From the sequence record OZ035760.1: a DNA stretch of 64,000 nucleotides, one strand, 5' to 3'. The stretch comes from Tequatrovirus NIC06P2. Each line of letters opens with the position of its first letter. Position 1 is the stretch's first letter. The notes beneath the pieces were generated by a model. That model saw nothing but the letters and a program-made list of their open reading frames with translations. It ran no database searches and was not told the DNA's origin. This document shows positions 14,086 to 16,152 of this stretch, piece after piece. The position numbers and the translations under genes are program-made.

Positions 14086-14302
14086 ATTGTTTTTCCGTTA
14101 ATACAGTAATATCGTAGTAACAGTCAGAAGAAGTTTTAACTGTGGAAATTTTATTGTCAAAATATTCACGAGTCATTTTATGAGTATAGTATTTTTTACC
14201 ATAAATGGTAATAGGCTGTTCTGGTCCTGGAACTTCTAACTCGCTTGGGTTAGGAAGTGTAAAAAGAACTACACCAGAAGTATCTTTAAATCGTAAAATC
14301 AT
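14039..14302 (-). CDS. hypothetical protein (nrdA.2 position, 87 aa)
   Basis: Complete ORF coupled to the td stop. Confidence 0.5.
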
Positions 14303-15159
14303 ATTGCCATTTTCCCTTTAATTGCTGGATGCGATTCATAATTTTCAAGGATAAAATCTTTCGGTTTCATGTATTCAGTTAACCAGTAAAGCTGTGTTTC
14401 GGTGTCACAATTTCCAAACTCTATAGGCCAGTCAATTTTAAGTTCGCACAGTTCTTTAGGCTCACGACGTAAAATTTCTTTACATTGCTCAGTATGATTC
14501 ATATAGATGTGAGTATTACCACCAGAAAATATCAAATCTCCTGGGATAAGATTACACATCTTAGCCACAATATGCGTCAAGGCAGCGTACGAGGCAATGT
14601 TGAATGGCAAGCCCAAGAAAACATCTACACTTCTTTGGTACCATTGTAAATCAAGATAACCATTACGCACATTAAACTGATAGAACATATGACAGGGCGG
14701 TAATGCCATTTGATTGATTTCAGCTGGATTCCATGCTGAAACGATTTGACGTCGATCAGTTGGTAATTTTTTAATACGATCAATAGTTTCAACTAATTGA
14801 TCCACACCACCGAAATCACGCCATTGTTTACCGTATATAGGACCAAGTTCACCACTATGATATCCTAGGTCTTTAGCCTGGTTTTCATAGTTATCGTCCC
14901 AAATAGTTTTACCTTGAATAAGACTACCATGAGTGCGAAGACGTAAATCATTAACATTGGTAGAACCGGAAATAAACCATAGAAGCTCAGCAATGCATGC
15001 ATTCCAGGCGAGCTTTTTAGTTGTTACTGCAGGAAAACCTTTGGTTAAATCCCAACGCAATTTAGTACCGAACAAAGCAATTGTTCCTGTGCCCGTTCGA
15101 TCATCGGTTTCATAGCCATTTTCAAAAATGTCTTTAATTAAATCTTGGTATTGTTTCAT
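14299..15159 (-). CDS. td: thymidylate synthase, uninterrupted (286 aa)
   Basis: Full-length TS with catalytic region PPCHMFYQF in a single ORF; no intron. Confidence 0.95.
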
Positions 15160-15203
15160 TTAGTACCTTATATAAATTATAATACATTTTATGAAGCTAA
15201 TAA
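15160..15203 (-). promoter_or_regulatory. candidate middle promoter (MotA-box-like GCTTCA about 12 nt upstream of TATAAT)
   Basis: Reverse complement reads ...tagcttcataaaatgtatTATAATtta... immediately upstream of the td start. Confidence 0.3.
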
Positions 15204-15551
15204 TTAATACGGTTTAGCATCAAATTTTCTCTCAATTTCAGGCGTGAAATATAATTCTTTACCGCGTTTGGAAAAACGACCAATAATATGATAATTATTC
15301 TCATCAAACGTGATATTACCAATATCCATAGCTTTCAACCAAATATCGATATTTCTATCCAGCTTTATGTCAAAATTCCAATACGGAGAACTATTACCGA
15401 AAATACTGCAAGCGGATTCAGTGAAACAACTGCTATAAATCTTGTCTTTAGGAACTACTAATTGATAGACGCCTTTAATAAACTGAGGACCCTGCCATTT
15501 TGGTTGTTTCGCGTCTTTTTCTAATAGAATAGGGTAATAATTAAAATTCAT
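15204..15551 (-). CDS. hypothetical protein inserted between frd and td (115 aa)
   Basis: Complete ORF occupying a 411-bp spacer between frd stop and td start. Confidence 0.5.
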   Translation of the reverse strand: MNFNYYPILLEKDAKQPKWQGPQFIKGVYQLVVPKDKIYSSCFTESACSIFGNSSPYWNFDIKLDRNIDIWLKAMDIGNITFDENNYHIIGRFSKRGKELYFTPEIERKFDAKPY

Positions 15552-15570
15552 ATTTCCGCCACGCGTTATT

Positions 15571-16152
15571 TCATTTATATACTGATTCCGTAAGGGTTGT
15601 TACTTCATCTATTTTATACCAATGAGTTTCAACCATTTCACGCTTGCTTATATCATCAAGAAAACTTGCATCTAATTGAACCGTTGAATTAACACGATGC
15701 CTTTTAACGATGCGAGAAACAACTACTTCATCCGCATAAGGTAACGCAGCATATAACAGAGCAGGCCCGCCAATTACGCTTACTTTAGAATTCTGATCAA
15801 GCATAGTCTCGAATGGTGCGTTAGGGCTTGACACTTGAATTTCGCCGCCAGAAATGTAAGTTATGTACTGTTCCCATGTAATATAGAAATGTGCTAAATC
15901 GCCGTCTTTAGTTACAGGATAATTACGCGCAAAGTCACACACCACAATATGGCTACGACCAGGAAGTAATGTAGATAATGACTGGAACGTTTTAGCACCC
16001 ATAATCATAGTTGTACCTTCGGTACGAGCTTTAAAATTCTGGAGGTCCTTTTTAACTCGTCCCCATGGTAAGCCATCACCTAAACCGAATGCTAATTCAT
16101 TAAAGCCTTCGACGGTTTTAGTTGGAGAATAAGCGAATACCAATTTAATCAT
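15571..16152 (-). CDS. frd: dihydrofolate reductase (193 aa)
   Basis: DHFR fold motifs (GLGDGLPW, ...MGAKTF) and T4 Frd length. Confidence 0.9.

Follow-up and report, generated by a model that had tools for sequence, protein, structure and literature searches.

We have analysed a stretch of 64,000 nucleotides (nt) of Tequatrovirus NIC06P2 (OZ035760.1), referred to below as the window, in which a small gene, td.1, lies between the genes for dihydrofolate reductase (DHFR; frd) and thymidylate synthase (td). The gene row reads frd - td.1 - td - nrdA.2 - nrdA.1 - nrdA, all on the same strand, and belongs to a Tequatrovirus near RB18 and FriedrichMiescher; over positions 14000-16400 the identity is ~98% with these two phages and with vB_Eco_BGP, and 94-97% with T2. 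The 411 bp between the stop of frd and the start of td (15160-15570) hold a complete open reading frame (ORF) with an ATG start, as an earlier note, made from the sequence alone, had reported. The same note had stated that in T4 the two genes overlap directly and that td carries an intron with I-TevI. The T4 record bears this out: frd (145109-145690) and td (ending at 145112) share a 4-bp ATGA overlap, and td is split by the I-TevI intron. Relative to T4, the junction of the window is longer by 415 bp and the td intron is missing. The earlier note saw in this the insertion of an ORF of unknown function; our analysis indicates that td.1 is a conserved member of a catalogued family, that its position between frd and td is ordinary, and that T4 has probably lost it.

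The substitution pattern identifies td.1 as a genuine protein-coding gene under strong purifying selection. In comparisons of the window with T2, T6 and FriedrichMiescher there are 4-13 synonymous and 0 nonsynonymous substitutions, a ratio of nonsynonymous to synonymous change (pN/pS) of 0, against 0.08-0.17 for the neighbouring frd in the same comparison. The GC content of the gene, both overall and at third codon positions (GC3), is typical for the genome. Moreover, td.1 belongs to an already catalogued family of unknown function, PHROG 1928 (E 8.4e-36, residues 4-111 against profile positions 2-125 of 126), and a family profile built in this analysis recovers the same set of proteins. The T2 fragment AY310907.2 contains, without annotation, a frame whose product is 100% identical to the encoded protein, and a complete T2 genome has the same protein annotated as hypothetical. 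In the T6 record AY262134.2 the gene is named td.1, 'hypothetical protein' (ABI48938.1); that protein is again identical, and the window differs from T6 solely at synonymous sites. Thus td.1 of T2 and T6, RB32ORF229c and bas37_0070 represent the same gene as td.1 of the window. These closest loci are alike in position, in the spacers on both sides (19-20 nt and 44-45 nt) and in the flanking repeats, whereas T6 and Bas37 (MZ501089, phage KarlGJung) have the td intron in addition to td.1 and the window does not.

The presence of td.1 at the frd-td junction is the majority state in Tequatrovirus; the arrangement is not peculiar to this phage. A tblastn search with td.1 yielded 580 phage records, 362 of them at >90% identity, and about 362 Tequatrovirus records (~70% of those matched) carry the gene, T2, T6, RB14 and RB18 included. 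The junction is a variable cassette site. Three states occur within Tequatrovirus: td.1 (~362 records), an unrelated 68-aa (amino-acid) ORF of PHROG 9550 (~133 records) and the direct overlap of the T4 type (~20-35 records). The last accounts for 20-35 of 514 records, roughly 4-7%, and many of these are T4 itself. A direct ATGA overlap as in T4 is also present in RB69 (Mosigvirus) and SP18 (Gaprivervirus). The alternative occupant, found in about a quarter of the Tequatroviruses, is a basic protein of 68-69 residues (MSNKLKVKDVP...), encoded in IME537 (locus L010, 2568-2774), in Dhakavirus JS98 (L020, 4214-4420), and at the loci L008 (2673-2879) and L016 (3670-3879); in the JS98 reference genome the ORF is unannotated. 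The proteins of JS98 and IME537 differ at 1 of 68 residues and the adjacent 5' ends of td match too, which suggests an exchange of this cassette between genera.

PHROG 1928 is known only from T4-like phages, where one to three tandem copies occupy the interval from frd to td. In the window and all 14 related loci inspected, a family member lies between frd and td on the same strand. More specifically, the Jiaodavirus locus has a member after frd and before td, Roskildevirus Cronus has copies of 144 and 103 aa in tandem, Kanagawavirus PEi26 and Entb_45 have two copies each (with a 68-aa ORF added in Entb_45), and five metagenomic contigs have a member at the same junction, one of them with three copies. 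The tandem paralogues were confirmed by their matches to PHROG 1928, and overlapping pairs or series of them, in Roskildevirus, Kanagawavirus and metagenomic T4-like contigs, occur at L004 (2059-2797), L009 (1998-2673), L014 (3562-4605) and L016 (3001-3673). The start codons in these other genera usually overlap the upstream gene, and one of the two to three copies is longer (~144-148 aa) and extended at its N-terminus; the window, in contrast, has one short, mildly basic copy that is set off by spacers and does not overlap its neighbours. The extension of the long paralogue repeats the motif of the first strand. Across genera, td.1 is 33-47% identical to its counterpart in the window, frd 45-51% and td 60-80%. 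When 1.84 billion cluster representatives were searched exhaustively with HMMER, only 32 matched, almost all of 95-150 aa, and none of these was fused to a known domain. No member was seen at another locus in the matches examined, which are syntenic across genera, and no paralogue was found elsewhere in the window. Word-index searches of protein databases returned few relatives. A search of the literature for td.1, its locus tags or frd-td gave nothing about the gene, and the functional data are confined to the supplement of the HIDEN-SEQ preprint discussed below.

The homology search that the earlier note had called for placed the 115-aa protein in PHROG 1928 and provided a structural model, but neither a functional match nor a significant match in the PDB. 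The family shares the motifs QxKW, HG(I/V)Y, GN and IGRFxKxGxxxxF and appears to form a small beta-rich domain. With an alignment of 39 sequences, AlphaFold2 gave a model with a predicted local distance difference test score (pLDDT) of 91.5 and a predicted template modelling score (pTM) of 0.85. The predicted structure is beta-rich, with one helix (residues 68-77) followed by a long C-terminal hairpin that would carry the invariant residues G91, K95 and G97. Compared with PDB structures, the model gave nothing significant; its weak matches are OB-like barrels, and the OB-fold nucleic-acid-binding domains (HIN, Teb1/RPA-like, the RecO N-terminal domain and S1) are among the closest known systems. 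In BFVD the sole matches were uncharacterised proteins of T4-like phages. Scans of td.1 against Pfam, NCBIfam and PADLOC gave no meaningful match, and Pfam yielded none for the 39 members of the family either; a profile search of the PDB by sequence gave chance matches only (the best being TagH, E 0.006 over 46 residues). The short form of the protein is mildly basic (isoelectric point 8-9.5) and rich in aromatic residues, whereas the long paralogue is neutral to acidic.

Under laboratory conditions the phage can do without td.1: it is absent from T4, and others have shown that transposon insertions are tolerated in its orthologue in Bas37, a phage with both td.1 and the td intron. In the HIDEN-SEQ data (doi 10.1101/2025.11.20.689424), bas37_0070 (49989-50336) was disrupted at 34/36 TA sites and called 'Non-essential', and in three of the six conditional comparisons made with Bas37 its log2 fold changes (log2FC) were 0.40, 0.18 and -0.09, with an adjusted p of 1 each. 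In one of the comparisons, between a clinical isolate and K-12 (Extended Data Table 7 on Bas37; doi 10.1101/2025.11.20.689424), insertions in td and I-TevI were strongly enriched (log2FC ~2.6 and ~1.9, adjusted p 0-0.011), and those in frd and td.1 were not. The identity of td.1, its conservation, its dispensability and the conclusion, argued below, that it is not a nuclease can, taken together and leaving the mechanism aside, be held with considerable confidence.

The junction of T4 equals that of the window minus one segment. A repeat search identified two copies of a 12-nt direct repeat around td.1 (Table 1), which agree at 11 of 12 positions and are spaced by 415 nt, and in an alignment of T4, T2 and T6 the junction of T4 reads TATAAATGAAACAATACC, which amounts to a single copy of the repeat, the intervening 415 nt being absent. 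The frd of T4 nests among those of phages that carry td.1, with a synonymous divergence (pS) of 0.077 to FriedrichMiescher versus 0.156 for T2. We propose, with a probability of about 0.65-0.7, that the family is native to the frd-td junction and that the overlap in T4 arose by deletion of 415 bp between the 12-nt repeats. Cassettes at this junction would also have been swapped between lineages, and, starting from a full array, deletions from one ATGA-type junction to another could account for all three states of Tequatrovirus. Such an array is exemplified by L016, which together with L017 has the td.1 closest to that of the window outside Tequatrovirus (63-66% identity). It reads frd - td.1 - td.1b - ORF69 - td, and at three of the four junctions the neighbouring genes share a 4-bp ATGA overlap, so that precise losses between them would be easy; td.1 and td.1b overlap by 17 nt, and the contig of L017 ends within td.1b. 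A loss in T4 is likelier than an insertion in the window because the family appears native to the junction, because T4 corresponds to the window minus 415 bp and because the T4-type junction is rare. A further feature of the left repeat is a two-codon mini-ORF, ATG AAA TAA (15569-15577, minus strand), which overlaps the frd stop as ATGA and ends 11 nt before the start of td.1; a remnant of a td start is one possible explanation, a means of re-initiating translation another.

Several observations weigh against simple vertical descent. While td.1 of the window is so similar to its counterparts at L016 and L017, the frd of the window is just 49% identical to theirs; L016 and PEi26 share 61% in frd and 44% in td.1; the td.1 tree disagrees with the frd tree; and RB69 and SP18, which represent sister genera, have the T4-type overlap. 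Given this shared junction and the discordant trees, an old re-acquisition is conceivable. The converse scenario holds that td.1 was inserted into an ancestral T4-like overlap from a donor of the L016/Kanagawavirus type, that T4 preserves the ancestral state, and that the 12-nt repeats are a target duplication or junction scar. It draws on the overlaps of RB69 and SP18 and on the greater closeness of td.1 than of frd to L016 and L017. In addition, the left repeat ATGAAATAA differs from the td start ATGAAACAA by a single C-to-T change and resembles a duplicate of it, and the near identity of the 68-aa allele with its Dhakavirus JS98 version implies that cassettes do move between genera. We nevertheless consider this order of events unlikely, though it retains a substantial share of the probability, considering that the T4-type junctions are few and frd of T4 falls within the td.1 carriers, that the same junction holds family members in many genera, and that differential deletion of a full array accounts for the three Tequatrovirus states by one mechanism. 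Moreover, TAAATGAAA is a common gene-start motif, with 11 copies in the window versus ~2.5 estimated from base composition, which makes a chance origin of the repeat plausible. The insertion described by the earlier note is thus probably the event read backwards.

As to the nature of td.1, the thought that it might be a chance open frame in a non-coding spacer, of which the promoter-like element alone would matter, can appeal to records such as the T2 fragment cited above in which the gene is left unannotated. It is refuted by the complete lack of nonsynonymous differences against as many as 13 synonymous ones; furthermore, homologues at 26-66% identity retain the conserved motifs across genera, and a confident AlphaFold2 fold is obtained when the family alignment is supplied, which leaves this idea a negligible probability. 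Scarcely better placed is the proposal that td.1 is a free-standing homing endonuclease that spreads by cutting junctions without td.1, such as that of T4. It goes back to database labels, since the gene is called 'putative homing endonuclease' in BASEL phages (bas39_0071, bas42_0068, bas44_0069 and bas37_0070) and in Klebsiella phage ValerieMcCarty04. Other labels in circulation are 'putative glucose-1-phosphate adenylyltransferase' (Shigella phage SF2-1) and 'putative dihydrofolate reductase' (JLBYU22 and JLBYU24). The variable presence of td.1 within Tequatrovirus and its location beside a known hotspot of homing (the I-TevI-bearing intron of td, to which mobE and segG are close in T4) agree with such a role, and like the Seg/Mob free-standing endonucleases it is a small gene variably present between conserved genes of nucleotide metabolism. 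Unlike these, it has no nuclease or DNA-binding domain, no matching fold and a fixed locus, with translational coupling in an operon. No catalytic domain or motif of the GIY-YIG, HNH, LAGLIDADG, PD-(D/E)XK or EDxHD type was found in td.1, there is no invariant residue of a catalytic type, and although the gene varies within Tequatrovirus, it has a single locus and is syntenic across genera in the matches examined. The label is without support, and td.1 is very probably not a nuclease. A third possibility, an anti-host or anti-defence accessory that is needed on hosts with a particular immune system and was lost free of cost in laboratory T4, is rather improbable as well, though less so than the other two. 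It would fit a small, phage-confined protein of orphan fold that is dispensable on E. coli K-12, a locus with three alleles within the genus and tandem, diverging paralogues in other genera, and in the HIDEN-SEQ study further T-even genes of this sort, likewise uncharacterised, turned out to inhibit defence systems (doi 10.1101/2025.11.20.689424). Its extreme conservation within Tequatrovirus is, however, unlike that of typical arms-race genes, its position in an operon for nucleotide metabolism is kept across genera, the three Bas37 comparisons, which involve few hosts, reveal no conditional fitness effect, and bas37_0070 does not appear among the anti-defence hits that the HIDEN-SEQ preprint names (doi 10.1101/2025.11.20.689424). 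Together with the empty PADLOC, Pfam and NCBIfam scans, this gives no sign of the anti-host role at which the earlier note had hinted.

Table 1. Genes and sequence elements around the frd-td junction, in window coordinates
Feature	Position	Strand	Remark
gene 32	17488-18396	-	
frd.3	17114-17341	-	
frd.2	16705-17070	-	
frd.1	16408-16650	-	
81-aa ORF, PHROG 3183 (function unknown)	16152-16397	-	extra compared with T4
frd, dihydrofolate reductase, 193 aa	15571-16152	-	Pfam DHFR_1, E 2e-19; PHROG 316, E 1e-55
Left copy of 12-nt direct repeat, TAAATGAAATAA	15566-15577	-	spans frd stop codon
Spacer frd/td.1, 19 nt	15552-15570	-	Shine-Dalgarno-like GGCGG 4 nt before ATG
td.1, 115 aa, ATG start, PHROG 1928	15204-15551	-	
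Spacer td.1/td, 44 nt, AT-rich (16% GC)	15160-15203	-	candidate promoter and ribosome-binding site for td
Right copy of 12-nt direct repeat, TAAATGAAACAA	15151-15162	-	spans td start codon
td, thymidylate synthase, 286 aa, uninterrupted	14299-15159	-	Pfam Thymidylat_synt over full length, E 7e-96
Diverged 3' end of td, last ~50 codons	14299-14452	-	differs from T2/T4 and from T6
nrdA.2	14039-14302	-	
nrdA.1	13759-14085	-	
nrdA	11504-13768	-	

Both spacers of the junction are kept in related phages. The 19-nt spacer recurs in T2 and T6, with one extra A in each, and the 44-nt spacer is conserved in T6 and identical in T2 apart from a 1-nt indel. Such identity, seen against a difference of 17% at the synonymous sites of td.1 between the window and T2, indicates that the 44-nt spacer is constrained; the td.1 stop just upstream of it is TAA in the window and TGA in T2. 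The spacer contains GCTTCA (15197-15192), TATAAT (15181-15176) and a Shine-Dalgarno-like AAGG (15169-15166), with TATAAT 16 nt before the ATG of td and GCTTCA 10 nt further upstream. It is a plausible candidate for a promoter and ribosome-binding site of td. The MotA consensus is (a/t)(a/t)(a/t)TGCTT(t/c)A, located ~12 +/- 1 bp (spacer 11-13) upstream of the -10 element of a sigma-70 promoter. The candidate MotA box, TTAGCTTCA (AGCTTCA at 15198-15192), resembles the consensus only in part: it departs from the TGCTT core at one position, and its spacer is 10 nt long. Hence the TATAAT reported by the earlier note is in place, and the MotA box that it associated with this element is imperfect. 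Neither a -35 hexamer nor the late-promoter TATAAATA was found near TATAAT.

The same note was right in that td is a single ORF, but this is not remarkable: the intron follows exon 1 in ~207-234 of ~515-560 records, so that ~60% of the Tequatrovirus td genes are intronless and the window has the commoner of two ordinary alleles. The 861-nt ORF is free of the T4-type intron (after codon 183, ~1 kb), and comparison with the spliced td of T4 and T6 places the site homologous to the T4 insertion point between 14611 and 14610. At the position of the I-TevI cleavage motif the window has CAAAG (14637-14633) versus CAACG in T4, with the critical C and G of the motif (PMC5009752) retained, and the region of the homing site encodes the same peptide. 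No Rfam family was significant in 13500-17000. The possibility that the td allele of the window is immune to the intron was rejected, as U5, G8 and other phages have the intron in the same exon-1 allele. Likewise, the idea that td.1 and the intron are mutually exclusive, for instance through loss by co-conversion in homing, was rejected: a chimeric query of td.1 and the 5' part of the intron was fully covered in 79 records, including T6, RB3 and Bas37, and the two elements are therefore independent. The td of the window is a diverged allele, only ~84-87% identical to T4 in DNA and ~90% in protein, against 97% for the frd protein. Its 3' end is a diverged mosaic segment, without a BLAST match to T2 or T4 over 14305-14452 and with 25-60% nucleotide identity in the last two 60-nt windows; T6 has a third variant. 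In addition, td overlaps nrdA.2 by 4 nt in the window, where T2 and T4 have a gap of 20-23 nt.

Further differences are found in the surrounding genes. The nrdB gene (9183-11452, minus strand) is split into an ORF for the N-terminal part of the small subunit of ribonucleotide reductase (10775-11452) and one for the C-terminal part (9183-9662), and an ORF for a 269-aa HNH endonuclease (9822-10631) lies between the halves. This looks like a group I intron with a full-length endonuclease of the I-TevIII type, as in RB3, the copy in T4 being truncated, and the phage thus seems to lack the td intron and to have the nrdB intron; at the gathering threshold, Rfam gave no intron model in the nrdB intron region. 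The gap between nrdA and nrdB measures 51 nt (11453-11503), and mobE and nrdB.1, which are located there in T4, are absent. On the other side of the junction, the 81-aa ORF between frd.1 and frd shares one base of its stop (16152) with the frd start. It is present in T2, and T4 has a 72-nt gap in its place; it is the second small gene of the region that is absent from T4.

A tentative picture of the function can be drawn, which we put forward as doubtful. The product of td.1 would be a non-enzymatic binding module, a small, mildly basic and aromatic-rich beta-barrel with a weak resemblance to the OB-fold. Co-produced with DHFR, it would have as its ligand either a nucleic acid or a protein partner in the nucleotide-precursor machinery. 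More specifically, PHROG 1928 could be a family of orphan fold whose members act in physical association with phage DHFR or thymidylate synthase, perhaps as stoichiometric partners that are made through translational coupling to frd and that tether or regulate these enzymes in the complex that synthesizes deoxynucleoside triphosphates, or bind their mRNA. This proposition is suggested by the gene context and is, in our estimate, improbable. If true, such a partnership would explain why the family has been retained in a single slot, in one to three copies, throughout the T4-like radiation, and the phenotype of a td.1 loss would show only under folate or thymidylate stress.

For the window itself the finding matters little, as the arrangement is common among the relatives of T4 and the databases already list the protein as hypothetical (td.1, PHROG 1928). 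The widely copied annotation of td.1 as a 'putative homing endonuclease' should go. The family combines a confident predicted fold with the lack of a solved relative in one of the best-studied virus groups, and since deletion mutants are viable it is a cheap target for structure determination and a binding screen. With respect to the frd-td junction it is T4 that is the odd one out, and the ATGA overlap of the textbooks is probably what a deletion between two 12-nt repeats left behind. The case is a reminder that T4 need not always be the ancestral reference.

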